From positions 1 to 33,742 of the forward strand of contig CAUJEF010000152.1 in assembly GCA_963169515.1 (NCBI GenBank): 33,742 nucleotides of DNA, in the 5' to 3' direction. The first letter of the stretch is position 1. Every line of letters starts with the position of its first letter. The notes beneath the pieces are model-generated. The model saw only the letters and a program-made list of their open reading frames with translations. It did no database searches and was not told the DNA's origin. The position numbers and the translations under genes are program-made. This DNA is from Bdellovibrionota bacterium. GTDB taxonomy: Bacteria > Bdellovibrionota > Bdellovibrionia > Bdellovibrionales > JAEYZS01. Positions 1,056-16,552 of the stretch are shown one piece after another.

Positions 1056-1402
1056 ATTTCCAACGCCTGAAAGCAAAAATCCACCAGCGCGGCTACATTC
1101 GAACTGACCTCCGCGGAACATCGATGTTGCCCCTATTGAAAGATGGCCAGGAAGTTTTAATACAAAAACTGACAGCGGAATTGAAGACTTTTGATTCTAT
1201 TGTTTTCTGGAATGGTAAAGTCTTAATTTGTCACGTAATTAAACATATAAATTCAATTTCAAAAAGCTATGTAACGACCGGCCTACTCCTTCAAAAAGAA
1301 GACACTCCCGTCATGGAACATCAGATTCTTGGACAAGCCACAATTAAAATTCCATTCTTTTTAAAAGTGTATTTAACAATTAAATGGAAACTCAAGGATT
1401 GA
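1034..1402 (+). CDS. S24/S26-family (signal peptidase-like) peptidase, candidate leader peptidase
   Basis: GTSMLPLLKDG catalytic-Ser box, then D.IVF...LICH (His at the general-base position). Small, with no N-terminal TM helix. The start may be 1043. Confidence 0.75.
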   Translation: MEFMSEIDFQRLKAKIHQRGYIRTDLRGTSMLPLLKDGQEVLIQKLTAELKTFDSIVFWNGKVLICHVIKHINSISKSYVTTGLLLQKEDTPVMEHQILGQATIKIPFFLKVYLTIKWKLKD

Positions 1403-1688
1403 TCAGCGTGATTAACCCCAGCTTTTTTAATTCGTCCGCAAATTTTTTCAACTGGCTTTTAACAGCGTGCTTAGATCTGCCTGCGTCGACCAAGCGACTC
1501 GAAATGTGCTTTAAGGAACTTTTGCCATCGATCAAGACCCAAGCTTTGGCCGCTAAACCATCTATTGTGTAGCATATGGACATTTCCTTCAGATCAATAA
1601 CTGTTACACTGCCATCTTGGTTCGATTTCGTCAAAACCGATCGCCTTTTCCTAAGCATAGAGCGTAAACTGGCCGACTTCATATCCAT
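1392..1688 (-). CDS. PqqD-family / RiPP recognition element (RRE) protein 1
   Basis: About 98 aa from ATG 1688 (the track extends to 1766). YTIDGLAAKAWVLIDGKSSLKHI and C-terminal FADELKKLGLI match the PqqD pattern. Confidence 0.85.
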   Translation of the reverse strand: MDMKSASLRSMLRKRRSVLTKSNQDGSVTVIDLKEMSICYTIDGLAAKAWVLIDGKSSLKHISSRLVDAGRSKHAVKSQLKKFADELKKLGLITLINP

Positions 1689-1828
1689 TACACTAAGGCT
1701 AAACCACGGGCCCTGCAATGTACTAGTTAAATACCAAATGTAATGATACTGCCGCACCTTTTCCAAACTCTAATTTATTTGCCAGGCCAATAAAAAAATG
1801 GGACGCTTCAGGCTTACAGGGGCGGATT

Positions 1829-1999
1829 ATGTCGAATGACAAAAGAAGTAAAAAGGCCATCCAAAAAGGGACTGCCACTACCACTGCCCAAAGCAGCTCC
1901 GAAAAAAACTTTAAATTTGGTCAAATAAAAAAAATAGCCTCAACACGTAAACAACACAGGCCAATTATTCATGGCGGATCAGGTACCTGCACCTCATAA
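1829..1999 (+). CDS. Putative RiPP precursor peptide, 56 aa: MSNDKRSKKAIQKGTATTTAQSSSEKNFKFGQIKKIASTRKQHRPIIHGGSGTCTS
   Basis: Hand-translated ATG 1829 to TAA 1997-1999, with a purine-rich RBS-like AGGGGCGG just upstream. First ORF of the sulfotransferase-RRE-LanB run, with a Ser/Thr/Cys/Gly C-terminus. Below the track's length cutoff. Confidence 0.75.
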   Translation: MSNDKRSKKAIQKGTATTTAQSSSEKNFKFGQIKKIASTRKQHRPIIHGGSGTCTS

Positions 2000-2787: not shown

Positions 2788-3081
2788 ATGATCAACCAAA
2801 TATCAAAAAATAAGATTCCAACAAAACCCAGGGGGGTTTTGTCCAAGCGTGTAAACAAAAACAAAATAGTAATTCAACGCCTAGGCCTGCCTGACAGTTT
2901 TTTTTTCATCGACTTTGTTGCAGCTGAGGCTTGGGATTTAATGAATGGCTCAAACAGCTTCAGCCAAATAGTTGCATTACTTAAAGAAAAACACCCGGAA
3001 GCCACTGTTAATCAAGTAGAGAGCAAGTTGATGGACTTAGTCAATAGCCTTATTAAAAATAAACTTGTGCAAATGGCTTGA
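2788..3081 (+). CDS. PqqD-family / RRE protein 2
   Basis: Likely start is ATG 2788 after AAGAGG (the track start 2647 overlaps the upstream gene). FFFIDFVAAEAWDLMNGSNSFSQI...LVNSLIKNKLV. The stop directly abuts the LanB start. Confidence 0.85.
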   Translation: MINQISKNKIPTKPRGVLSKRVNKNKIVIQRLGLPDSFFFIDFVAAEAWDLMNGSNSFSQIVALLKEKHPEATVNQVESKLMDLVNSLIKNKLVQMA

Positions 3082-6018
3082 ATGACAAAAATTAAATGTA
3101 CTGATTTTTTTATAGTACGATATCCAACCTTACCCGCATCCATTTGCTGCGATCTAGACCGTAAAAAAACTGTCGCGCTCATGTCAAATCCCACTATATT
3201 AAAAGCGGTCCAGGTAGCCTCGCCCGTATTTATCGAACATTGGAACAGTAGAAAAGAAAATGATAAGTTGATAATAGATAAAGCCTATCAATATCTTGTA
3301 AGAATGTCATCGCGAACCTTGCCGTTCGGGGCTTTTACCTCTGCAATAACCGGTAAAATCCAAAACACAAATAGCTTAATTCCTCCCAAATTGGATGATC
3401 TTATTTTTAATTTTTATTCTGATGAAGTTGAAGTCGACAAGATTTACAAAGAACTGTTATCGGACGTCAAAACTCTTCAAAATGCAAAATTTTTTTTAAA
3501 TCCAACCATTCGTTTCTTGAACTCAACCACTATTCGCTTATGGTCGTGGAAATGGGAAAAAGGGCAAAGAGATTATCAAGAAGTTTTTCTTAAAATTCCA
3601 CGCCACACATTTTGCGCCATAAAACAAATTCAAAAAGATCTCTGTTATATCGATATAGCAAAAATTTTTACAAAAACAGGCGTCTCCTCAAAAAACCTCC
3701 ATGCATATGTAATGGACTTGCTTGAGCACAAAATTATTTTCCCAGACTTTCACCCTCGCAGCAGTGGGTTCAGTTCAAATCTTAACCGTTGGGCTAAGCT
3801 GCTACCCCATTCTTCAATAAAAAAGAAAATCGAAAAATACAGATCCAGCTTGGGCGCCTACACCAACAAAAACCTCGCCACAGCACCAAACAACAACGTA
3901 ACAGTAATGGTATCCGCAAGGACCGCGCAGAGCTTATCCCATACAACCGTCGAAAGCGTCAGGCTCACAGCACAAAATATGATTCGTGCTTTCGGGCGAA
4001 GGTCCTATGTTGCCAACCAAAACTCTACGGTCGGAGTTTACAAAAAAGAGTTCCTATTAAAATTTGGTACCTCTGCCGTACCGCTATTGGATGCCTTGAG
4101 CCTATTTAATGCTACAAACAACAACAATAATTCTTATCTCGCTGATGGGTTGCTCGAATGTTTTTGGCAGAAACGGTTTTTCACCACTCCCCCTCAGGAT
4201 GATTTGCCAGGATGGAACATTAATCTTACCCAACATGATTGGGTCGATTTGTTTGAAATAGACTCTGCCATAATGAATGCTTCTGACCCCACCCCAAGCT
4301 CTGGCACAATATATTTTTCTCTGTTCGACAACTCGACTGTGATTAATCGAATTCTCGGCTGGTCAGCGGCAAAAATGATTTCTCGCTACTGCCTAAATGA
4401 TTCTTTATTGGTGAAAGAATTGTCAAAATTTAATGAATTCGATCGGTCGCGTTATGATGAACTTGTTTTTGCTGAATTGGAAAATTTTGACACAGGATAC
4501 ACAGCAAATATCTCCAAACGCCCGCCCCTGTTAAGCCATGAAATAAGATTATTTTCCGGACCAGACGCGAAGCTCAAGAACATCAAATTAAACGATCTCT
4601 ATATCCTTCTTCGAAACAATAGGTTTGTCCTCTACTCCGATTCTTTAAAAAAAGAAATTGTACCTCAGTTAAGCGCTCCCATCTGGCCAGGGACGTCGAT
4701 AATACCCGCTGTGCTTTATCGGTTTTTAGCGCTGCTACGTTCTGATTTAGAGTGGCCATACGTTAAACTTATGTTTGGTAATCTCGAGCAGAATGAGCAT
4801 CTTCCAAGAATTACATTTGGTCCAGTGGTCTGTCGGCCTGAAAGTTGGCTTTTGGACCCAAAAAGGATTTTGGCTGCTCTAGAATCCAACAATCTTAACA
4901 CGCTTAAGTTGCCCGACAAGATAAACTGGATCGAATACGATCGAAAAACTCCTATTTTTTTCAAATCAGATCAAAGTGTGTCTGTATTTAAGAGGGGACT
5001 AAAGAAGCTTGCTGGCAAAAGCGCAACCGTTTATCTCGAAGAAATAATCTATGATTTCAATTCTCCCGCAGATGCTTTTAATGAAATTGTATTACCATTC
5101 TATAATGAGACCTATATCCGAAAACAATTCAAAATACCTGACCTTGCCTATTCCAACACTCGCCGCAGGGTAGAACCGGATTGTATCTACTTCCAGTTTT
5201 ATTGTAGCGCAGAAAACGACTACTTTTTAAGCTCAGAACTCGCTCCATTTTTAAAGAGTCAAAAAATTAACAACTATTTTTTTATTCGTTTTGATCAACC
5301 AGATTACCATCTTCGTTTGCGCATCTTTAGCTCCATTAAATCCCATCGTGATGTCCATAGTACCTTGTGGAAAAAGGCGTCTGGCTGGCTTGCAAATGGA
5401 ATCATTAGCGATTTCAAAGTATGTCCATATATTAAAGAGCTCGAAATTTATAGCGGCCCCCAAGGGGTAAATATCTTTGAAAAACTTAGCGTTATAGATA
5501 CGAGGCTTGCTTTAGGGTTCCTTAAGTCTTCTCCAGAGAACAGATTTAAAGATCACACCCTCGATGCCGAAACCTTCGATTTTTTGACAATGAGCGCGCT
5601 TAGCTATGCCCATTTGTTTTGGCCAAGTTATGGGGATCATATTTTAGAAATTAAAAATATTATAAAAAAACAAACACCCATCGCAAGTGTATCAGACAGA
5701 ATATCTAAAGCATCGTATCAAGATCTCAGACGCTCGCTTATGAAACGCACCTTGGACGCACGTAATGAATGTTGGGCTACGTATAAAAAGTGTTCGCACT
5801 TGCGCCGTGATGCAATTATTCAGTTTAGAAAAAATAAGAAAAACAAATCTATTCAGGTCGAAGTTTCTGTATTTTTTGAGAGAATGTTTCACCTTATGAA
5901 TAACCGTATATTCAGCCAGAACAGTGTCATCCATGAAACTCAATTATTACTTACAGTCCTCGCTCTCCTGGAGCGAGAACAGGCATTGGCAGCTCATCGA
6001 AATGAAAAAACTATTTAA
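3082..6018 (+). CDS. lanB: LanB-type lantibiotic dehydratase (glutamylation domain plus C-terminal elimination domain)
   Basis: 978 aa. Glutamylation domain: FFIVRYP, YLVRMSSRTLPFGAF, LNPT, LPRITFGPVVCRPESW. Elimination domain: YFFIRFDQPDYHLRLRIF, YIKELEIYSG, HLMNNRIF. Confidence 0.92.
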   Translation: MTKIKCTDFFIVRYPTLPASICCDLDRKKTVALMSNPTILKAVQVASPVFIEHWNSRKENDKLIIDKAYQYLVRMSSRTLPFGAFTSAITGKIQNTNSLIPPKLDDLIFNFYSDEVEVDKIYKELLSDVKTLQNAKFFLNPTIRFLNSTTIRLWSWKWEKGQRDYQEVFLKIPRHTFCAIKQIQKDLCYIDIAKIFTKTGVSSKNLHAYVMDLLEHKIIFPDFHPRSSGFSSNLNRWAKLLPHSSIKKKIEKYRSSLGAYTNKNLATAPNNNVTVMVSARTAQSLSHTTVESVRLTAQNMIRAFGRRSYVANQNSTVGVYKKEFLLKFGTSAVPLLDALSLFNATNNNNNSYLADGLLECFWQKRFFTTPPQDDLPGWNINLTQHDWVDLFEIDSAIMNASDPTPSSGTIYFSLFDNSTVINRILGWSAAKMISRYCLNDSLLVKELSKFNEFDRSRYDELVFAELENFDTGYTANISKRPPLLSHEIRLFSGPDAKLKNIKLNDLYILLRNNRFVLYSDSLKKEIVPQLSAPIWPGTSIIPAVLYRFLALLRSDLEWPYVKLMFGNLEQNEHLPRITFGPVVCRPESWLLDPKRILAALESNNLNTLKLPDKINWIEYDRKTPIFFKSDQSVSVFKRGLKKLAGKSATVYLEEIIYDFNSPADAFNEIVLPFYNETYIRKQFKIPDLAYSNTRRRVEPDCIYFQFYCSAENDYFLSSELAPFLKSQKINNYFFIRFDQPDYHLRLRIFSSIKSHRDVHSTLWKKASGWLANGIISDFKVCPYIKELEIYSGPQGVNIFEKLSVIDTRLALGFLKSSPENRFKDHTLDAETFDFLTMSALSYAHLFWPSYGDHILEIKNIIKKQTPIASVSDRISKASYQDLRRSLMKRTLDARNECWATYKKCSHLRRDAIIQFRKNKKNKSIQVEVSVFFERMFHLMNNRIFSQNSVIHETQLLLTVLALLEREQALAAHRNEKTI

Positions 6019-7411
6019 GCAAAATTGGTTCTTACTTCTGGTCGGTTCGTTTTTAGTTCTTTCCGCATGGGGCAGGATTAACTTGCCAGCTTTTTGGGAT
6101 GAAACTAAGGTGTATTTTAGGCCTCTTTTTTGGATGTATGAAAATAACGGGAACTTCTTTTCTCTTGCCCCTACAAAATTTGATCGCCCGCCGGGGCTGC
6201 ATTTATTTTATCTTCCATTCCTTTGGCTGTTTGGACCCCACGTTGTAGTTGTCCGCGTCCTGAATGTAATATTTTTCTATATTGGGCTATTTTTTTTCTA
6301 CAAAGTTCTAAGCAGGCAGAACGCCACAACTGCCCAGGTGACAACGGTATTTTTCCTGCTAACACCCATTGTTGAAGTTTATTTTGTACAATATATCGGC
6401 GATGCTCAGCTCTTCATCTTATACTCTGCTGTGCTATATGCCCTTACCTTTTATAAAGATAAATATGTAACCATTTTCATTCTAGGTTTTTTAAGCGGAC
6501 TCGCAAGGGAACCTGCAGTTTTTCTCACCCCTGCAGTTCTTTTTTATTATCGATATGAAAATAAGAAGTTAAAAAAAAATGAATGGCTGGCCTCTTTCGG
6601 GCCTTTTTTCGGTTTCTCGACGGCCATACTCATCACCTTTTTGAAAACCAGATTATTTTTTAATCATTTAACAATCGACTCTGGTCACATAAACTTTTTC
6701 CTAAACCTTTTTGAGAGACTAGACATTCTCAATCGAGCCTTCATAGTCCCTTATAGAATTCTGCCTTTGCTGGGGTTTGCTTCAATCATGTTTTTCTTGA
6801 ATCGGAAGGCGCTTCGAGTTTCTGCATCTGACGCTTACTGTTTGATTATTGGACTTGCAAATCTAACTCTATTTTCTAGTCACACACTTGCCCTGCCAAG
6901 GTACTTTTTTGCTGGTTTTCCATTTATATTATATCTTTTAATCAAAATCTGCTTTGCAGGCTCGACTTCAAAAAGGATGAAAGCCATAATAACAACACTT
7001 ATTTTAGTCCCTGCAATATTTATTGGCACCCCCAAAGTCAAAGACCAAAAAGGCTTTTATTTCATGACAGGCTATCAAGATACGATGGAATATATAAAAG
7101 TGTTAGGGGTCCATAAAAAGGTAATAGCTACAGTTAAGACGGAACTCAGAAGTGCGGACACAATTGCAACCTCCTGGCCTTTCATTTCGATTCTTGAATC
7201 CAAATATGCTGGATATGGACCTCCCGGTGAATTTAATATCACCGCTGATTTAGAAAAGCTCATTGTACCACCACGTGCTATTCTATGGACCAATTTCCCC
7301 GAACAAATACCTCGCGGAGAGATCGACAAAATTTTATCTCATGCACAATATAGAGAAACTGTATTCGATTATCCACCGATTAAAATTCGCCTTTTCCTGA
7401 AGCCCAATTAA
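6002..7411 (+). CDS. GT-C fold integral-membrane glycosyltransferase (ArnT/PMT-like)
   Basis: Likely start ATG 6002 (MKKLFKQ), overlapping the LanB end. Many TM helices, a WDE acidic motif after the first TM, DRPPG, PRY motif and a soluble C-terminal domain. Confidence 0.75.
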   Translation: MKKLFKQNWFLLLVGSFLVLSAWGRINLPAFWDETKVYFRPLFWMYENNGNFFSLAPTKFDRPPGLHLFYLPFLWLFGPHVVVVRVLNVIFFYIGLFFFYKVLSRQNATTAQVTTVFFLLTPIVEVYFVQYIGDAQLFILYSAVLYALTFYKDKYVTIFILGFLSGLAREPAVFLTPAVLFYYRYENKKLKKNEWLASFGPFFGFSTAILITFLKTRLFFNHLTIDSGHINFFLNLFERLDILNRAFIVPYRILPLLGFASIMFFLNRKALRVSASDAYCLIIGLANLTLFSSHTLALPRYFFAGFPFILYLLIKICFAGSTSKRMKAIITTLILVPAIFIGTPKVKDQKGFYFMTGYQDTMEYIKVLGVHKKVIATVKTELRSADTIATSWPFISILESKYAGYGPPGEFNITADLEKLIVPPRAILWTNFPEQIPRGEIDKILSHAQYRETVFDYPPIKIRLFLKPN

Positions 7412-7429: not shown

Positions 7430-7735
7430 ATGAAAAGTAAACAACTCCCCGGTACTTTTAGATTTGCTGAAGGTATTTTTATTTGCAATTCACTGAACTC
7501 CCTCCAGTTGGTCAAGATACATCGCTCATCTGGCGTCTACGATCTGGATGGTTTGGTGGCTCAAATCGTAAGAAAAATTGACGGAAAAACTTCCCTACAG
7601 ACAATTGTAGAATATATTGCATCCCAAAATAATATAAATATTGATGATCTTGCCGCAGAAACCACACACTTAGTCGAATACTTACTGGCTGAAAACTTAA
7701 TTAAGATCCAATCAGACTACATCGATATGAATTGA
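7430..7735 (+). CDS. PqqD-family / RRE protein 3
   Basis: VYDLDGLVAQIVRKIDGKTSLQTIVEYI...LVEYLLAENLI, the same pattern as the other two copies. Confidence 0.85.
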   Translation: MKSKQLPGTFRFAEGIFICNSLNSLQLVKIHRSSGVYDLDGLVAQIVRKIDGKTSLQTIVEYIASQNNINIDDLAAETTHLVEYLLAENLIKIQSDYIDMN

Positions 7736-8826
7736 TCTTCCGTAGGCTGAAGCAATTTTACTTTCTTTAGCTCAACAATATTAGAGCGAAGCTGTTCGCA
7801 CGGGGCGGCAAGGTCCAGCACATTCATAGCCCCTCCAAACATTGAATAGAGATGTAATTTTTGATCAATACAAATCACACTAATATCTTCAGCTGGCCTA
7901 AAGCGTTTGCCATCTAGGCTCAATACAAATATTTTTCTCATACTCTCACTCAAATCTACATCAGTAATATTAGCGCTAGACGTGGGGCTGAACGCAACTC
8001 GCAACACTCCCAAAAGGCCTGCGACATTGCTTACGCGATGATAACATTTTTCAAAAAAAGAAAAGCCACTTAAATTTGTTGAAAAGAGTTCTTTTAATAT
8101 AACGCGATAAGCTTCCGAAGTTTTCATTCTGGAGGCCAATGCACAAAACCTTTGCGCACGGCCACAGTGGTAGAAACGCAGCAGATAATCCACTACCCCT
8201 CGATCAAAATAAACTTTGGCCATGGCTCGACGATCGGCGACTATATTTCCTCCAGAAAGAAACAACCTCGTTGATAAGTCAGTGTCCTCAAACCTTGCCA
8301 AAGATTCATCAAACCCTCCAATTGCAACAAAAAAATCTTTGCGATAAATACACGCTGCCGTATTGACGGCAGGGCCAACTCCATTGCGATGTACTACAGA
8401 AATGGCGGTTCCACAATATCGGGATTGATTGAGCTTCTTGCGATAGACATTCAAAAAATTTTTCTCACCGTCAGGAATGACCTGTCCCAACGCAATTCCG
8501 AAATGAGCTTCGTCCAATCTGCGACGCAGAATATCAAGCCACATTTTATCTAACACAACATCGCTATCGATAAATGCCAAAAACTTACCTTTTGCTGCTG
8601 CTACCCCAAAATTTCGAGCTGACCCGGCGCCCTTTTTTTTACAGCTCACGATTTGGATGTCAAATTTTCTCGCAATTTCTACAGTACGGTCGCAAGAGCC
8701 ATTATCAACTAAAATCACTTCGCAATGGCGCCCCCCTCTATAGAGGTTCAAAATGGATTCTATAGTTGCGCCAATAGTCTTTTCTGAGTTTAGCGCTGGT
8801 ATAATAAATGTGGTATCAACTGTCAT
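7717..8826 (-). CDS. GT2-family glycosyltransferase with a possible degenerate RRE-like C-terminal tail
   Basis: Likely start 8826 (MTVDTTFIIPALN). VDNGSCDRT, ARNFG, FIDSD (DxD), GGFDE...EDTDL. Confidence 0.9.
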   Translation of the reverse strand: MTVDTTFIIPALNSEKTIGATIESILNLYRGGRHCEVILVDNGSCDRTVEIARKFDIQIVSCKKKGAGSARNFGVAAAKGKFLAFIDSDVVLDKMWLDILRRRLDEAHFGIALGQVIPDGEKNFLNVYRKKLNQSRYCGTAISVVHRNGVGPAVNTAACIYRKDFFVAIGGFDESLARFEDTDLSTRLFLSGGNIVADRRAMAKVYFDRGVVDYLLRFYHCGRAQRFCALASRMKTSEAYRVILKELFSTNLSGFSFFEKCYHRVSNVAGLLGVLRVAFSPTSSANITDVDLSESMRKIFVLSLDGKRFRPAEDISVICIDQKLHLYSMFGGAMNVLDLAAPCEQLRSNIVELKKVKLLQPTEDQFISM

Positions 8827-8916
8827 ACTTGTGCTTTTATACCGAAATAGATTTTTAGACAATTACCTAAAATAATTCCTTGCCAAGTCATAGTCACATT
8901 GTCGTCTAATAATAAG

Positions 8917-9936
8917 ATGAAAACGTGGCTTATTACCGGTGGCGCCGGGTTTATTGGTAGCGCTTTGCTGCGCACAGCAATCGAGGGTGGGCATCGCTGC
9001 ATTGTTTTAGATAAACTCACCTACGCTGGCCAGATTCAAAATATCAAGTCAGTGATCAACGGCGAGTCGGCCGTTTTTATCAAAGGTGACATATGCGATT
9101 CCAATCTAGTCACGACACTCTTGAAAGAATATCAAGTCGATTACATTGTTAATTTAGCGGCAGAGACCCATGTCGACACTTCCATTTCTGATCCCGGGAA
9201 ATTTATTGACACAAATATTAGCGGTACCTATCGACTTTTAGAAGCCGCAAGAGAATATTGGGTAAACTTAAACCCCGAAAAAAAAAGATTCTTCCGATTT
9301 TTACATGTATCTACCGATGAGGTTTTTGGTGAGTTAAATGATTCTGGAATATTTAGCGAGACGACAGCCTATGCTCCTCGATCCCCCTACTCTGCCTCAA
9401 AGGCCGCTGCAGATCATCTTGTACAGTCCTGGCACCACACTTTTGGGTTACCAACAATTGTCACGTTAAGTTCAAATAATTATGGGCCCAGACAATTCCC
9501 AGAGAAATTAATCCCGCGAATGATAAGTTGCGCTATTCGAGAAGCTAATCTTCCTGTTTACGGTCAAGGGCTCAATATTCGCGATTGGATATATGTAGAT
9601 GATCACACCCGCGGCCTGAATCTTGCGCTTGAGTTTGGGAAACCTGGTGCCTCATACTGCTTCGGCGGTAAATCTGAACGTAAGAATATCGATGTGGTCA
9701 ATTCTATTGCGATGAATCTCAATACCCTAAAGCCTCGAAAAAATGGCGCCAACTACAAAGACCTGATATCTTTTGTAGAAGATCGACCTGGACACGATTA
9801 TCGCTATGCCATTGACTCAGCAAAAGCCGAACGAGACCTAGGCTTTACTCTTGTCACCAATTTTGAAGATGGCTTAAGAAAAACTATCATGTGGTACCTT
9901 AGCAATGCCGCTTGGCTAAAAGATATTGCAATATGA
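8917..9936 (+). CDS. rfbB: dTDP-glucose 4,6-dehydratase
   Basis: TGGAGFIGS, DKLTYAG, AAETHVD, HVSTDEVFG, YSASKA, NNYGPRQFPEKLIP, DRPGHD.RYA. ATG 8917 is preferred over TTG 8899. Confidence 0.97.
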   Translation: MKTWLITGGAGFIGSALLRTAIEGGHRCIVLDKLTYAGQIQNIKSVINGESAVFIKGDICDSNLVTTLLKEYQVDYIVNLAAETHVDTSISDPGKFIDTNISGTYRLLEAAREYWVNLNPEKKRFFRFLHVSTDEVFGELNDSGIFSETTAYAPRSPYSASKAAADHLVQSWHHTFGLPTIVTLSSNNYGPRQFPEKLIPRMISCAIREANLPVYGQGLNIRDWIYVDDHTRGLNLALEFGKPGASYCFGGKSERKNIDVVNSIAMNLNTLKPRKNGANYKDLISFVEDRPGHDYRYAIDSAKAERDLGFTLVTNFEDGLRKTIMWYLSNAAWLKDIAI

Positions 9937-10670
9937 TCAACTGCGATTTGCACATTGGTGCAATTTTTATCGCGTATAATGCAGAACAGACATTAGAAAA
10001 TTTCTATAAAAACTTTCCTAAGTCTGAAGTAAAAACGATGATCCTCGTCGATGACGCTTCAACAGATGGAACTTATGGTTTGGCGTTGAAATTAGGAATA
10101 CCCACGTACAGGAATGCCCATAACCTAGGTTACGGAGGGAATTTAAAAAGAGCTCTTGCTCTAGCTGAAAAACACGGGATGGATATAATAATAGATCTCC
10201 ATCCTGATGGCGAATATGACGCCTCTGCAATACCTGCAGCAATTGAAAAAATTAGAAATGGAGCCGATCTTGTAATCGGAAATAGATTTACAAAAATAAC
10301 TGACCAAATAAATAGCGGCATGTATTTATGGAAACTCATTCCAATATTACTGCTAAATACAATTGCAAGGTATACACTCAATTTAAAATTGAACGACATT
10401 CATCAAGGATTTCGTGTCTACACCCGGCATATGCTAAAGAGTATCAATTATAAAGAGAATTCAAATAACTATCTTTTTAGTTTTGAACTAATTGTACAGG
10501 CGGTGATGGCAAATCTAGATATTGCAGAGGTGCCCGTAAAAACCCACTACGTCGGTAATAAACGAGGTGCCACGCTAAAACAAAGCACCCTATACTCATT
10601 AGGTGTTATCAGGATCATTGCGCTTTTCATCCTGTCTAAACTCGGCGCAAAGTCGCGGCTGTTCAGATGA
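9933..10670 (+). CDS. GT2 polyprenol-phosphate glycosyltransferase (Ppm1/DPM1-like)
   Basis: ATG 9933 forms an ATGA overlap with the rfbB stop. VDDASTDGT, NLGYGGN, HPDGEY, V.GNRF, D.HQGFRVY, EVPV.T.Y. Confidence 0.88.
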   Translation: MINCDLHIGAIFIAYNAEQTLENFYKNFPKSEVKTMILVDDASTDGTYGLALKLGIPTYRNAHNLGYGGNLKRALALAEKHGMDIIIDLHPDGEYDASAIPAAIEKIRNGADLVIGNRFTKITDQINSGMYLWKLIPILLLNTIARYTLNLKLNDIHQGFRVYTRHMLKSINYKENSNNYLFSFELIVQAVMANLDIAEVPVKTHYVGNKRGATLKQSTLYSLGVIRIIALFILSKLGAKSRLFR

Positions 10671-11890
10671 AGACGTGTCGTATTTGTAATAGCAGAAAAC
10701 TCCGCACATTTTTGTCATTAGGTGATATGCCCCTTCCGAATGGATTTCTTTTAGAGGATGAGCTTAAGAAAACCGAAGCCAAATACGATCTGAGTGTCAG
10801 TATTTGCAAATCATGCTCCCTTGTTCAGTTGAATACAGTTGTACCACCCGAATTGATGTTTACAAATTATTTATATATCCCCTCGACTTCTTCAACGATG
10901 CTTAGCCATTTCGAAAAAATGGCTGATGATTTAATTGAAAAGCTTAGGCTTACCCATGATGACCTTGTCTTAGATATTGGTTGCAATGATGGGACATTTC
11001 TCAACTTTTTTCATAAAAGATCTCTTCCTGCACTTGGAGTTGATCCGGCAAAAAATCTTATCCCCCCCGTGCAAAAAAAAAATATCAACATAATTAGCGA
11101 TTTTTTTTCTAAAGTACTTGCAGAAACCCTAATCTTACAGGGCTACAAGCCTAAATTAATTACAGCAACAAATGTTTTAGCACATATTGATGATTTACAC
11201 GACTTTTGTTCTGGAGTGCATACCTTACTTCGTGGGTCTGGAGTCTTCGTGGCAGAGTTTCCATATCTCGTGGATCTCCTCGAAAAAACACAATTTGATA
11301 CAATTTATCATGAGCATCTCTCATACTTTTCCTTAACCCCTCTTGTTCGTCTGTTTGAAATGCACGATATGGAAATCTTTGATTTGAGCAGAATTCCCAT
11401 TCATGGTGGCTCAATTCGAATTTTCGTAGGAAAAACAGGTGATCATGTGGTTATGCCCTCTGTTGGCGCTTGTCTTCGCGAAGAGGAAAACCTCGAACTA
11501 AACGTAGATCATATTTATGATGAGTTCACAGCGAGAGTAAAATTTAATGCTCATTCTCTAACACAGTGCTTGAAAGACCTAAAGCGCTTAGGGAACCGCA
11601 TAGTCGGTTATGGAGCTCCAGCGAAAAGCAGCGTACTTTTGAATTACAGTGGTATTTCTAACGAACTCATCGAATATATTGTAGATTCAATTCCATGCAA
11701 ACAAGGACGTTACACTCCGGGGACAAGAATTCCTATCCATTCTGAAGAGAAACTGAATTTTGACAATCCTGACTATCTGGTGATATTTGCCTGGAATTTT
11801 AAAGATGAAATATTGAAAAAACAAGCTTCATTTTGCAAACGAGGGGGCCGCTTTATAGTCCCAAGCCCGTCCGTTATGATGTTGCCTTGA
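10667..11890 (+). CDS. NDP-hexose C-methyltransferase (TylCIII/NovU/TcaB9-like, Zn-binding)
   Basis: N-terminal CRIC...CKSC zinc site, DIGCNDG, NVLAH, DTIYHEHLSYF, IHGGS, YGAPAK, KQGRYTPG, AWNF. Confidence 0.92.
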   Translation: MKTCRICNSRKLRTFLSLGDMPLPNGFLLEDELKKTEAKYDLSVSICKSCSLVQLNTVVPPELMFTNYLYIPSTSSTMLSHFEKMADDLIEKLRLTHDDLVLDIGCNDGTFLNFFHKRSLPALGVDPAKNLIPPVQKKNINIISDFFSKVLAETLILQGYKPKLITATNVLAHIDDLHDFCSGVHTLLRGSGVFVAEFPYLVDLLEKTQFDTIYHEHLSYFSLTPLVRLFEMHDMEIFDLSRIPIHGGSIRIFVGKTGDHVVMPSVGACLREEENLELNVDHIYDEFTARVKFNAHSLTQCLKDLKRLGNRIVGYGAPAKSSVLLNYSGISNELIEYIVDSIPCKQGRYTPGTRIPIHSEEKLNFDNPDYLVIFAWNFKDEILKKQASFCKRGGRFIVPSPSVMMLP

Positions 11891-12644
11891 GATATTCAAC
11901 TGTTTCAAAAATTTCTCTCCCTAGAGGAGTTAGCTTGGATCGCACATCACCTAGAAACGCCCTCTCCACAAGTGACACTATACTTTCAACAGAAGTTAGT
12001 CTTTTCGAGCAGATATTAATTGTTCCAGTTTCATTGCTATCTTCTAAAACAGCTAACTTGTCAGCAACATTTCGCACATAAACAAAATCATGAGCAGGGT
12101 TCCGTGGGACAATGAGGGGGCGCTCCCCCATGGACAGTCTTTTAACAGTCGCTGAAATCAACTTTTCGGGCGGTTCATGGGGGCCAAACACATAGGATAT
12201 CCTTCCCCAAGCGCTGCTTAAGCCGCGAAAATCTGTTTCAAGAGCACTCTTTAATTTCAGCTTTGAAATCGAATAGTTTGATTTAGATAAAATCTCCGCT
12301 ATGGACCCTGCGATAACGGCTCTGCAACCTCCTGATTTTTTAAAAAAGTCTATCAACTTCAAACTTGCGTCTAACCAGAGAAAGTTTTGTTGTGCCATTG
12401 CATATTCTCCATGTTTCGTGTGCCAAGCTAAATGTAGCAAATGCGTCGGCTCAACTCTTTTTATTAAGTCGGCTACTTGTTGCTCATCCAGCAAATTGGC
12501 CTGATGCCAATTAATCTGTGGAGTGTTTGCCGGGACTGAAGCACGAGAAACCGCATGGATTTTAAAACCTTTTTTTATCAGAATCGGCAAACAATGACTT
12601 CCAATAAATCCTCTTGCCCCAGTTACGAGAATTTTTCTGTTCAT
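11874..12644 (-). CDS. NAD(P)-dependent sugar epimerase / 4-ketoreductase (extended SDR)
   Basis: ILVTGARGFIG, HLLHLAW, YSISK (YxxxK), VFGP.E. ATG 12644 forms an ATGA overlap with the rfbC stop. Confidence 0.88.
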   Translation of the reverse strand: MNRKILVTGARGFIGSHCLPILIKKGFKIHAVSRASVPANTPQINWHQANLLDEQQVADLIKRVEPTHLLHLAWHTKHGEYAMAQQNFLWLDASLKLIDFFKKSGGCRAVIAGSIAEILSKSNYSISKLKLKSALETDFRGLSSAWGRISYVFGPHEPPEKLISATVKRLSMGERPLIVPRNPAHDFVYVRNVADKLAVLEDSNETGTINICSKRLTSVESIVSLVERAFLGDVRSKLTPLGREIFETVEYLKATS

Positions 12645-13159
12645 TTGTGTGTGCATAATTGCTTCCACATTGGGAGCGCTTGGTCTCGCTCAGAAATGAT
12701 CGTGGCGCATGAAGGCCATTGAATAGCTAAATCCGAATCATTCCAACGAATCCCACTCTCAACCGCTGGATTATAAAAATCAGTTGTATGATAGAGAACA
12801 TCTGCAGGAGTATCGCCAAGCACACAAAATCCATTAGCAAAACCGGGAGGGATCCACAGTTCCAGACCATTTACCTCACTTAATTCTACAGAAAAATGCT
12901 TACCGCGAGTTGGTGATTCATTCCGAATATCTACGACCACATTCCATATGCTGCCGCGAACAACTCCGACAAGCTTTCCTTGACCAATTTGATAATGAAG
13001 ACCCCTCAAAGAATTGGGATAAGAGCGCGAATGATTTGTCTGAACAAAGTTTACATGAATATTCTGCTCACTAAACGTACGCTTATTCCAGAGCTCCTGG
13101 AAGAATCCTCGGCTATCTTGAATTTGATGATTCTTTAATATTTTCAAACCTTCAAACAT
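12641..13159 (-). CDS. rfbC: dTDP-4-dehydrorhamnose 3,5-epimerase
   Basis: DSRGFF.E, FVQ.NHSRS, LRGLHYQ, QGKLV, WIPPGFA, GIRWND. Confidence 0.95.
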   Translation of the reverse strand: MFEGLKILKNHQIQDSRGFFQELWNKRTFSEQNIHVNFVQTNHSRSYPNSLRGLHYQIGQGKLVGVVRGSIWNVVVDIRNESPTRGKHFSVELSEVNGLELWIPPGFANGFCVLGDTPADVLYHTTDFYNPAVESGIRWNDSDLAIQWPSCATIISERDQALPMWKQLCTHK

Positions 13160-13237: not shown

Positions 13238-14806
13238 TTACGGCTTAATGGCACCAACGGGAATCCATCCAGGGTTGCTGGATGCGCCGTCGGTTTCATA
13301 GGCGCCGACGTCAAATGGTGCAGCTCGCGTATGGCCGTTAAAATCTATGTCTGCCTTGTATGCGGGATCGGCGGTACCAATTAGTGGGGAGCCTGGGCGA
13401 GGGAAAAAATTCATGGCGGCAGCGTTGATAAATGCATTCGCCGCAGTGCCACCATTGAAAAATCGGTTATTATCAACTGAAGCGCCACTTCCTGTTAGGT
13501 AATTATTTTTTACTATGGCACTACCAAACGATGAACTGACATTGGAATAGACCGCATTATTTGCAAATACCATCCCAGGCAACCCGCTCCATTGCAGATA
13601 TAAATCCGAGTTATAAATTGTATTGTGGGTTACGATGACGTCCCGTCGGCCACTTACCTGCCCATGGTTATAGGACGCAATGCCATAGCCAGAATTAACA
13701 ACTATGTTGTTTCTCACTATCGTATTTGATGTCGCAACAATCCCTTCACCCGTATTCCAGCAAACATTGCCCTCTATAATATTAGCCGTGCTTGCCCCAT
13801 AAGACCAGATACATGGGTACTGCACGCCAGTTTGAGTGTGAATAACATTGTTTCTGACAATATTACCACCGCTACCAACCTTCATTTCAATACCGTCGTT
13901 ACCGCCGCTGTTATCCGAATTTAAATCATGAATATAATTATTTTCAAAAATACTATTCATTACACGGCATGTGTTATTGTTGCAGCCGATATACAATCCC
14001 TCACCTTCCGTGTCTGAACCGGATCGACCCGTATGATGGATATGATTTCTTCGAATAACAATCGAATCGGCATTTCCGCTATTCATTGGAATCGCATTAT
14101 TTAGAGTATTATAAATTTCATTGTCTTCGAAAATAATATTATTACCGCTCATAAATCGAACGCCTGAGCTTCCACCTTCAAATTTAATTCCCTGAATTAC
14201 CAGATAAGAACAGTTGTCGAGCTCAATATTATTTTGGTTGTTAGGGTCATTTTGTTTAAAAATAACTGTTTCGCCCGGTGCGGCCATGATCGTAATATAG
14301 TTTTGTGCATTTCCACGAAGCGACAGCGAGCGGCGTGTGCTTTGACAGTAGGTTCCTCCCCGGATAATCATCCGATCCCCAGGTAAAAGTGTCGAGGCTA
14401 AGTTCTCAAAATCCTCATTGCAAGCACCATTGGCTGGTGGATTCAATGTCACGGTTTTTCCTGTAACAGGCGGAACTGATGGGACCGGAGTTAGCGACGG
14501 GCGGGGTGTTGATGTTGGAGATGGAGGCACAGTTGCCGTAGGCGTAGGCGTAGGCGTAGGTGATGGCCGTGGCGTTGCAGACGGAGTTGCCGTCGGTGAC
14601 GGACGTGGTGTTGTGGATGGAGTTACGGATGGTATAGGCGTAGCACTCGGCACAGGTGTTGGGGTGCTTCCGGCGCAAAGCTCACCTGTGGGACAACTGC
14701 TTGAATTCAAACTCAAAGATTTAAAACCCTCGCCACAGTTATTGAAAAATACAAGAAGGCCCAGAACCACTAAAATTCTTGAAATTTTATGAAGCTTTTG
14801 TTTCAC
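13238..14806 (-). CDS. Lipoprotein with Pro/Thr-rich linker and right-handed parallel beta-helix domain (putative polysaccharide-acting)
   Basis: GTG start and a signal peptide ending FFNNC. PT linker, then PGD.M.IRGGTY, repeated N.I.H/N beta-helix turns and a C-terminal DVGAYE motif. Confidence 0.82.
14468..14665 (-). repeat. Low-complexity Pro/Thr/Ser linker including (CGTAGG)x4 at 14537-14560
   Basis: Encodes [10 protein letters not shown]...[12 protein letters not shown]...PSVPP. The hexamer tandem is read directly from the sequence. Confidence 0.9.
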
Positions 14807-14812
14807 AAGTTC

Positions 14813-14839
14813 TTATCGTCAGCTCTTATTGCGGACTAA
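14813..14839 (-). promoter_or_regulatory. Sigma28 (FliA)-like promoter for the beta-helix lipoprotein gene
   Basis: Minus strand TTAG-N15-GACGATAA versus consensus TAAA-N15-GCCGATAA. It ends 6 nt before the GTG start. Confidence 0.55.
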
Positions 14840-14854
14840 AGTCCTGTCTACCTG

Positions 14855-14880
14855 TTTGACAGTTTTAGCCAACTGTCAAA
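14855..14880. other. Perfect 10-bp inverted repeat with 6-nt loop downstream of the S8 gene (hairpin or operator)
   Basis: TTTGACAGTT-ttagcc-AACTGTCAAA, with no following U-tract. Confidence 0.6.
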
Positions 14881-14887
14881 TCCCTGG

Positions 14888-16327
14888 TTATTTCAAAATT
14901 TCTATATTCCGTGTACTGGCCACCTGCTCGCCATTCCCAGTTGCTGTCACAGTGATTTTGCCAGCAGCTTTTGCAACCAAGGTTCCTGTATCATCTATTG
15001 TCGCCAACGTGCTATTGTCCACGCTCCATTTTACGCCCCCACCAAAACCGTAGGCTGTAAATTGAATTGAACCGTTTTTAGCCAATCTAAACTGGCCAGG
15101 CCAAACCTGTGGGCCGCCTTGAAATTGTCGAAGCGCCATATCTGCATTCGCCAACCCACCCGTTGCAACCGGCAGTGAAGATCCACGAACAGCATTTAGA
15201 ACTGCGTTTTTCAAATCCAAAACACTAAGCCCTGGATGGACGGACAATATAAGAGCGGCAATTCCCGCCACTGCAGGGGTAGCCATCGAAGTGCCACTCA
15301 ACCGACCGTAGGCTTTATTGCTGTTATTTAATGCAGACATAATATTTAAACCAGGCGCGCAAATGTGTGTTGTTCGGCGTCCGTAGTTCGACCAAGATGA
15401 AACACTGCCTGAGTTCGTCGAAGCAGCGCTACATACCGAAATCAAATTAGGTAATTTGTAGCCCGATGGATAGTTTGGGTTTGAATCTGTATTTTGCCCA
15501 CTATTACCAGCGGCCGCAAAAAACAAAACCCCTTTAGATCCGGCATAGACAAGAGAATCATACATTGCCTGATTAAAACTATCACCACCCCAGCTTGCGT
15601 TGATAATCCTGGCGCCATTGTTTGCGGCATACAGAATAGTTTGGATTCCACCCTCTGTGCTACCCGAGCCTGATGCGCTTAAGAATTTCACTGGCATAAT
15701 CGTCACCGACCAGTTTACACCGGCCAAACCCTTACCGTTGTTTCCTTCAGCTCCAATAATTCCTGAAACGTGAGTTCCATGCTTGTTATCATCATTGGAT
15801 TGGTTGGTATTTTTATAGAAATTCCAGCCATGAACATCGTCAATAAATCCATTTCCGTCGTCATCTTTGCCATTGCCATCAATTTCGCCCTTATTGGTCC
15901 AAATATGATTCGCAAGATCTTCATGGGACCATTTGACGCCCGTATCGCTAACCGCTACGACAACATTTTTTGAACCCGTCGATATGTCCCATGCCGGCCG
16001 CAATCGAAGCGCGTCACCCGACCACGCTTTCGGATCGTTTGGTTTTGCATAGGCTTTGATTTTGTGGTTGGGCTCTACATAAAGAACCCTTACGTTTGCC
16101 TTTAATTCAATTAACTTTTCTGGAGTGAATTTATCTTCTGGCTTTCCGACATAAAGATTCAATTCAGGAATAATGTTCGTAATAATCATTCCTGCATCCA
16201 TAATTATTGCTTCAGCCTCAACACCAACCGTGTCTTCTGTAAAACGAACAAGCAACTTATCATCAAAGAGATCGTTCGCAATCGCAGGTAAGCCAAAAAA
16301 TAAGACAAGTATGATTATTTTCTTCAT
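14888..16327 (-). CDS. Secreted S8 subtilisin-like serine protease with C-terminal Ig-like (Big_2) domain
   Basis: Start 16327 after GGAGGA, with a signal peptide. Catalytic triad VSDTG, HGTHVSG, GTSMATP, DDDGNGFIDD insert, and WSVDNSTLATIDDTG Ig-like tail. Confidence 0.95.
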   Translation of the reverse strand: MKKIIILVLFFGLPAIANDLFDDKLLVRFTEDTVGVEAEAIIMDAGMIITNIIPELNLYVGKPEDKFTPEKLIELKANVRVLYVEPNHKIKAYAKPNDPKAWSGDALRLRPAWDISTGSKNVVVAVSDTGVKWSHEDLANHIWTNKGEIDGNGKDDDGNGFIDDVHGWNFYKNTNQSNDDNKHGTHVSGIIGAEGNNGKGLAGVNWSVTIMPVKFLSASGSGSTEGGIQTILYAANNGARIINASWGGDSFNQAMYDSLVYAGSKGVLFFAAAGNSGQNTDSNPNYPSGYKLPNLISVCSAASTNSGSVSSWSNYGRRTTHICAPGLNIMSALNNSNKAYGRLSGTSMATPAVAGIAALILSVHPGLSVLDLKNAVLNAVRGSSLPVATGGLANADMALRQFQGGPQVWPGQFRLAKNGSIQFTAYGFGGGVKWSVDNSTLATIDDTGTLVAKAAGKITVTATGNGEQVASTRNIEILK

Positions 16328-16552
16328 TTGTTCCTCCAGAATTTTGGTCACATTTAGGATGGCCGAAATTTTCTATACAGCCTAGCCCTTCCCCCGCATC
16401 GTTGTAAAACTTGGACTTTTTGCTGTAGAACTATTTATCAATATGAAACACATTATTCACCCTAACTACCTCAAACCCCAGTATTTCACAGCTCTGTGAA
16501 CTTCGACCCGGCAGTACATTTGCATTTTAAATAGAATATAAAGGGGGATCTT

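Follow-up and report, generated by a model that had tools for sequence, protein, structure and literature searches.

The window analysed here is the whole of a 33,742-nucleotide contig from a Bdellovibrionota bacterium whose genome, assembled in 173 contigs, is 96% complete; the labels of relatives from the same order and phylum assign it to Bdellovibrionales. It carries an intact reading frame of 56 amino acids, from an ATG to a TAA (positions 1829 to 1999, forward strand), which an earlier note had proposed to encode a precursor peptide. The gene order described in that note was borne out: a divergent PqqD-like gene, the frame, a sulfotransferase-like gene, a PqqD gene, a full LanB, a GT-C-like membrane protein and another PqqD gene. 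On the upstream side, the end of cysN (the C-terminal part of CysN, 1 to 522), the gene of the adenylylsulfate kinase CysC for PAPS supply (522 to 1055) and that of a soluble signal-peptidase-I-like (S26) protease (1034 to 1402) lie on the forward strand and are followed by the divergent, PqqD-like RRE1 (1392 to 1766, reverse strand), which likely starts at an ATG near 1688. Downstream, all on the forward strand, come an Stf0-like sulfotransferase (1971 to 2762), RRE2 of the PqqD family (2788 to 3081), a full-length LanB dehydratase of 978 residues (3082 to 6018), a GT-C/PMT-like membrane protein (5924 to 7411; a lead from language-model features only) and RRE3, again of the PqqD family (7430 to 7735). 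The glycan genes that follow RRE3 (7717 to 13159: two GT2, a dTDP-glucose 4,6-dehydratase, a sugar C-methyltransferase, an epimerase and RmlC) may be linked to the peptide. After them, positions 13238 to 16351 hold a beta-helix protein of the secreted type, which has a Pro/Thr-rich linker, and a subtilase carrying an Ig-like domain.

The only LanB of the genome and all three of its PqqD matches surround the frame. Searches of the genome for LanC (PF05147, above the cut-off) and YcaO (PF02624) gave no match, nor was a lasso cyclase or B2 cysteine protease found among the 29 window ORFs scanned, or a pyridine synthase among the annotated ones. Two further contigs bear on the locus. Contig C163, which carries wzm/wzt, terminates in cysD and the N-terminal part of cysN; because cysN is split between the two contigs, C163 probably abuts the window. 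Contig C124 carries an HprK-like gene, glycosyltransferases, a twitch radical SAM protein and an NTase-like neighbour judged by eye. No contig-end overlaps joining C124, C163 and the window were found.

The peptide reads as the earlier note had claimed: FKFGQIKKI occupies residues 28 to 36 (1910 to 1936, forward strand; a candidate RRE-recognition motif), the C-terminus is IIHGGSGTCTS, and two Ser, two Thr and the sole Cys of the peptide all fall within the final six residues. Its Lys-rich N-terminus turned out to be modest, with 5 K/R in the best 20-residue window before the motif. A Shine-Dalgarno-like AGGGG, corresponding to the RBS-like site of the note, lies at 1818 to 1822 (forward strand), 6 nt upstream of the ATG; its duplex with the anti-SD core has an energy of -6.1 kcal/mol, a value attained by 5% of 2000 random sites and by 30% of 597 long ATG ORFs. 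Over its last 29 nt the frame is shared with the sulfotransferase ORF, itself ATG-started at 1971. Contigs from other runs span the frame free of gaps (X10 over 1809 to 2029; X7 and X8, which look like a single data set, over 1788 to 1994); since they cover the A-run near 1925 to 1933 without indels, a frameshift artefact at this place is ruled out. The single listed variant, 1992 C>T, changes Thr55 to Ile in the peptide and Pro8 to Ser in the overlapping sulfotransferase, and this Thr55Ile/Pro8Ser version, which comes from another run, is also on record as protein; the exact 56-residue sequence is absent from a collection of 15 billion proteins.

Taken on its own, the frame stands weakly beyond chance. 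When the 312-nt region was resampled 2000 times with a Markov model, an ATG ORF of at least 56 residues arose in 6.3% of cases, so that the context must decide. The resampling figure fits a frame that arose by chance and stays untranslated in a divergent promoter region, the true substrate lying on another of the 173 contigs or having been lost. So does the fact that gene finders left the ORF uncalled, as the earlier note had observed, and that no RNA contig covers the region in the one RNA run, an absence which proves nothing. The Atlas recognition of the ORF, 1825, is likewise below the 2300 mark, and the best Atlas score of the peptide, 0.77, is at lead level only. Promoter and terminator signals around the frame were none above chance. 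Against a chance frame stand the strength of the Shine-Dalgarno site and three findings described below, namely the first rank of the motif in the genome, the position relative to the sulfotransferase, which is that seen in a relative, and the lack of any other rule-passing candidate among the small ORFs of the genome. With these weighed, we consider a chance frame quite improbable.

Direct similarity did not reveal relatives. The similar ORFs that the earlier note had expected from tBLASTn did not appear, tblastn with the peptide giving no sequence homolog in 158 loci; a direct search found no paralog in the genome, and the peptide has no Pfam or NCBIfam match. Searches by motif had a mixed outcome. 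A strict motif fixed in advance was found in 0 of 49 new RRE-baited loci; its K/R threshold is one that the frame itself fails to reach. A looser family rule, devised post hoc after this failure, picks out eight small ORFs of this kind close to RREs, distributed over six further genomes of the order (three in G432 and one each in G455, G354, G444, G453 and G588). All eight start Lys-rich, continue with a F/Y-G/A-x-[ILV]-x-[KQR]-[IVMH] stretch and end in a short tail. Support for conservation in the leader extends to the looser core, F/Y-G/A-x-[ILV]-x-[KQR]-[IV]; the leading F is variable. With the frame of the window, the family comprises nine peptides from seven genomes and six genera. One relative's peptide exists in two versions which differ only in the Lys-rich start, and a like motif occurs in a LanB/LanC precursor of G332, from another order.

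The looser rule was passed by 5 of 676 small ORFs in the 49 new RRE-baited loci and by 3 of 474 in 41 earlier ones, by 0 of 1757 in 80 generic LanB loci, and by 1 of 3198 in the genome, which is the frame itself. Its only later test, on 10 sulfotransferase-baited loci with neither RRE nor S26, gave 0 of 113 small ORFs. A motif profile built from the eight relatives placed the frame at rank 1 of 3198 (score 19.4 versus 15.0), a rank that is partly circular because the relatives were chosen by a rule fitted to it; similarly, five members were found by RRE bait, and their closeness to an RRE is therefore not independent. When ten family peptides were made into a profile, its six protein hits were all either members of the input or a close variant. 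Gene layout adds to the comparison: in G455 an RRE, sulfotransferases, a full LanB, an S26 protease and a 58-residue peptide recur (this genome, 99% complete, gave no LanC match), and in G588 the peptide gene immediately precedes a gene of the same sulfotransferase family, which is also the arrangement in the window. From these sequence comparisons, a precursor family of Bdellovibrionales is credible, and the precursor status claimed in the earlier note, whose interpretation holds in part, is supported by the context and by the eight similar ORFs in six genomes. That the frame encodes a precursor peptide has a good probability in our judgement, and precursor status pooled over readings that differ in chemistry is highly probable.

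Within the order, the RRE profile matched in 51 of 384 genomes, the S26 family in 29 of 384 (a few weakly) and LanB in 8 of 384 (6 of 401 genomes of the phylum). The ten loci of the family all hold a glycosyltransferase; a sulfotransferase-type gene is present in 6 of the 10, S26 in 4, LanB in 3 and wzm/wzt in 3. No S26 match was found in G444 or G453, though both carry the peptide; this and the count of 4 in 10 speak against a fixed part for S26.

Several other observations were made in these loci. A second precursor family, well conserved, occurs in 11 of the 49 new RRE loci (L215:4946-5146, L220, L223, L228, L229, L234, L236, L237, L238, L244 and L248): its peptides have a Lys-rich start, a Y-x-x-P-x-hydrophobic-x7-[FY]-G-A leader with the spacing of the LPP leader (aromatic at position 14) and a two-Cys core ending in K-L-x-S; 10 of the 11 loci have an S26 gene, and none overlaps with loci of the F-G motif type. 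Neither precursor type, F-G motif or YxxP, was present in 33 of the 49. Many stand-alone RREs also start with long, precursor-like Lys-rich tails (L201:6065-6403, L246:1877-2251, L200:5828-6289, L208:5851-6387, L115:327-689). Fusions of a phosphoribosyltransferase-like domain, a PQQ-type beta-propeller and a C-terminal RRE (L209:6070-8088, L212:3558-5576) directly adjoin the precursor gene in G444 and G453. The G455 cluster (L115:8279-15286) further contains asparagine synthetase-like, metallo-beta-lactamase-fold and MBOAT proteins, together with a carrier protein and a class II tRNA-synthetase-like protein beside its LanC-less LanB. Cys-rich lanthipeptide precursors, several with A-Y-A/G before the core, lie in the LanB/LanC loci of the phylum (L015:8674-8886, L017:7470-7661, L019:7613-7846, L018:1192-1479, L113:1025-1252, L161:8601-8840). 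In G332, G168 and G275, an S26 homolog is found on another contig.

The earlier note had assigned the FKFGQIKKI segment to binding by the RREs. According to the available part of PMC11002830, leaders bind RREs as a fourth strand. Among solved chains, TbiB1 is the one closest to the RRE profile of the window. The structural model suggested by the note was made for RRE2, as one prediction on a 14-row RRE2 alignment, and is weakly positive: the complex with the peptide scored 0.53, the best of three controls 0.01, with no interface given. Runs of this pair share at least 88% of contacts, with a partner pLDDT of at least 52. The score mark was passed by 116 of 157 solved pairs and by 2 of 215 mismatched pairs, yet the range up to 0.60 holds both of these mismatches and only 18 of the 157 solved pairs. 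The pass of the RRE2 model may also reflect memory or likeness, because RRE-leader complexes have already been solved. We consider it somewhat probable that FGQIKKI is the RRE-bound site; the stretch would then add to a stand-alone RRE as an extra beta-strand.

The S26 protein, which the earlier note does not mention, likely acts as the leader peptidase. Its S30 and H67 are present in 16 of 16 aligned homologs, as is D or E at position 90, and S30/H67/D90 matches the LppS triad S29/H68/D93; LppS cuts an LPP leader only with its RRE (PMC13381572, in the part available). The candidate peptidase site is the I-H-G triplet at 1967 to 1975 (forward strand), which matches [AVILK]-[YFH]-[AG]; this expression, written post hoc, finds such a triplet in front of the tail in 11 of 15 candidate precursors. 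Cleavage behind the triplet puts a small residue at -1 in all 11 peptides that have it, and signal peptidases prefer a small residue there. The preference of LppS for an aromatic residue at -3 would place the cut at GG/SGTCTS, but with mixed -1 residues in the relatives. We mildly favour a cut after I-H-G, which would give GSGTCTS, over one after H-G-G, which would give SGTCTS; the predicted core (1976 to 1996, forward strand) has 7 or 6 residues accordingly. The very short core that the earlier note foresaw agrees with the tails of the relatives; its GG/S register is one of two, and the relatives favour I-H-G. In 24 S26-baited loci, wzm was found in 10 and an adjoining HprK-like gene in 9; the soluble S26 gene often lies there in wzm/wzt or HprK-like loci with no precursor seen nearby.

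The chemistry on this core depends on the LanB, which has both PF04738 and PF14028, the domains for glutamylation and elimination. It falls into a small, divergent group with three others (E 1e-99 to 1e-125; the next homolog is at 6e-38), and all four keep the equivalents of Y80, R83, R87, R464, R784, R786 and H961. For the three closest homologs, no confirmed locus was found in genome contigs, and only generic LanBs appeared among the metagenome matches listed. The window LanB has no equivalents of R826, T89 and D299; the latter two vary within the group of four, and their change costs little in NisB, according to the available part of PMC4341554. The Arg826 column, checked against NisB, reads I, S, V and S in the window LanB and its three closest homologs, and R in 25 of 27 other LanBs. 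In the window protein it is Ile789, the His961 equivalent (H937) and the E823 equivalent are kept, and the syn-lyase Lys is also absent (F737). In the accessible portion of PMC9486935, Arg826 is described as activating elimination by anti-lyases, and all full-length LanBs as having been predicted to be of the anti type. Judged from the alignment, full-length LanBs with I, S or V in this column fit neither described lyase type. The same combination of an I/S/V Arg826 column, a kept His961 and no syn-lyase Lys occurs in window 3082-6018, P0008, P0009, P0010, L018 and L114.

The loss of Arg826 may leave elimination by this LanB in doubt, and together with the missing LanC and the missing syn-lyase Lys it speaks for a real precursor on which the enzyme eliminates poorly, so that glutamyl (aminoacyl) esters would stay on Ser/Thr or be passed to a different acceptor, the product being an acylated short peptide in place of a dehydropeptide. 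The retained H961, R784, R786 and E823 equivalents argue against such an outcome, as does the distribution of the substitution: it is found in G283 and G487, whose loci contain LanC, and G283 even groups with the window LanB clade (quick tree, SH-aLRT 95, long branch), whereas the LanC-less G455 keeps Arg826. These three genomes rule out that Arg826 loss explains the missing LanC. With the two traits thus varying independently, dehydration is still the more likely outcome; retained esters seem improbable to us, and dehydration of the peptide by LanB is a tentative proposal, just short of even. The enzyme would glutamylate Ser/Thr of the C-terminal tail, with Ser51 and Thr53 as targets (Thr55 appears dispensable in one variant), and probably eliminate to Dha/Dhb. 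As there is no LanC, any ring would be spontaneous, presumably a Dha51-Cys54 thioether, and the core would otherwise be linear; spontaneous lanthionine formation from Dha without NisC is described in the available part of PMC7609037.

The call of the sulfotransferase rests on an RSGST loop and a fold match to Stf0 (E 4e-4, TM about 0.43); its profile found no solved relative by sequence, the one match coming from the fold search alone. Residues 1 to 11, which overlap the peptide tail, are of low confidence in the model. The family also occurs in loci without RRE or peptide (10 sulfotransferase-baited loci), and for this reason the enzyme may serve glycan instead. With the glycosyltransferases, it may decorate the core or act only in the neighbouring glycan pathway, and we regard sulfate or sugar on the peptide as unlikely. 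Another possibility is that the peptide serves the surface-glycan pathway as a scaffold or primer: RRE-guided enzymes would build a sulfated or glycosylated unit on the short tail, S26 would free it, and it would leave the cell with the Wzm/Wzt polysaccharide instead of acting as a free signal or antibiotic. The glycosyltransferase, sulfotransferase-type and wzm/wzt genes in the family loci and the wzm genes in S26 loci are compatible with it, as are the widely varying tails, the absence of LanB from most loci and the position of LPP clusters, which also lie in capsule loci (PMC13381572, available part). This evidence, however, is co-location only, the link to C163 is deduced from the split cysN, C124 is unlinked and the sulfotransferase family also occurs where neither RRE nor peptide is present, so that we hold a scaffold role to be very improbable.

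Among known systems, the linear polyphosphorylated peptides (LPP) of Bacillota (Popov et al. 2026, PMC13381572; compared here from the available part), with polyphosphorylated Ser in the core, come closest. As in the window, a discrete RRE occurs together with an SpI leader peptidase of the archaeal type, whose triad is Ser/His/Asp, and both systems lie in polysaccharide loci; the LPP criterion of an SpI-like Ser/His/Asp peptidase beside a discrete RRE has its counterpart here in S30/H67/D90 and the adjoining RRE1. LPP clusters contain an HprK-like kinase and an NTP transferase; an HprK-like gene is present in the genome, but on C124, which has no end overlap with the window. Other features differ: the LPP leader is YxxPxVLxHQxIxFET, whereas Tyr is absent from the peptide, which has a single Pro, at residue 45; the predicted core is of 6 to 7 residues, and that of the LPP tested is of 45; genes for LanB, a sulfotransferase and PAPS supply are present here; and the only exporter seen here is of the Wzm/Wzt type (on C163), where LPP has an MsbA-like one. 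By analogy, the system of the window appears to work like LPP and not to be a member of it. The part of the LPP data set available contains one Bdellovibrionales SpI with two RREs, for which no precursor is listed.

Class I lanthipeptides of the NisB/NisC type share the full-length LanB and the Ser/Thr/Cys tail; they have LanC, an FxLD/FNLD leader and Arg826, all three absent here, and the window cluster in turn has three stand-alone RREs, an S26 protease and a very short core. On sequence grounds, membership of this class fails on LanC, FxLD and Arg826. Pearlins (TglB-type PEARLs) and pyritides share with the window a LanB-like enzyme unaccompanied by LanC, and a tail that is very short or scaffold-like; in the available part of PMC11002830 they have short LanBs without the elimination domain, or precursors without Cys, in contrast to the 978-residue LanB with PF14028 and the Cys-containing peptide found here. 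Paeninodin-type lasso clusters also have a discrete RRE near kinase, nucleotidyltransferase-like and glycan genes, but there is no YxxP in the peptide and its core is too short to thread. Thiopeptide or azole RiPPs need the YcaO that gave no match in the genome. No description of the precursor family was found in the literature searched, which includes parts of PMC7470986 and PMC12710340, the 13 figure motifs of the latter and most subscription journals being outside this scope.

Our preferred reading is that the frame is probably translated and gives the precursor of a Bdellovibrionales RiPP that depends on an RRE and an SpI peptidase, in which an RRE would present the end of the leader to the soluble S26 protease for a cut after I-H-G or H-G-G, and cleavage would free a core of 6 to 7 residues. 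A broader proposal, which we find rather unlikely, is an undescribed RiPP class of Bdellovibrionales with Lys-rich precursors, an F-G-x-hydrophobic-x-K-hydrophobic RRE motif, cores of 3 to 12 residues, soluble SpI-like cleavage and interchangeable tailoring in surface-glycan loci; here, a LanB without LanC or Arg826 would give a retained aminoacyl ester or a glycan-coupled dehydropeptide. If the frame were noise, the cluster would stay an orphan and the matter would be minor. Otherwise, it and its relatives would provide a new candidate RRE recognition motif and would equip the RRE/SpI clusters of a predatory phylum, in which the one case of the LPP survey had no assigned precursor, with candidate substrates. 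They would also bear on what a full-length LanB does without LanC or Arg826, and on why RRE/SpI RiPP genes lie inside polysaccharide loci.
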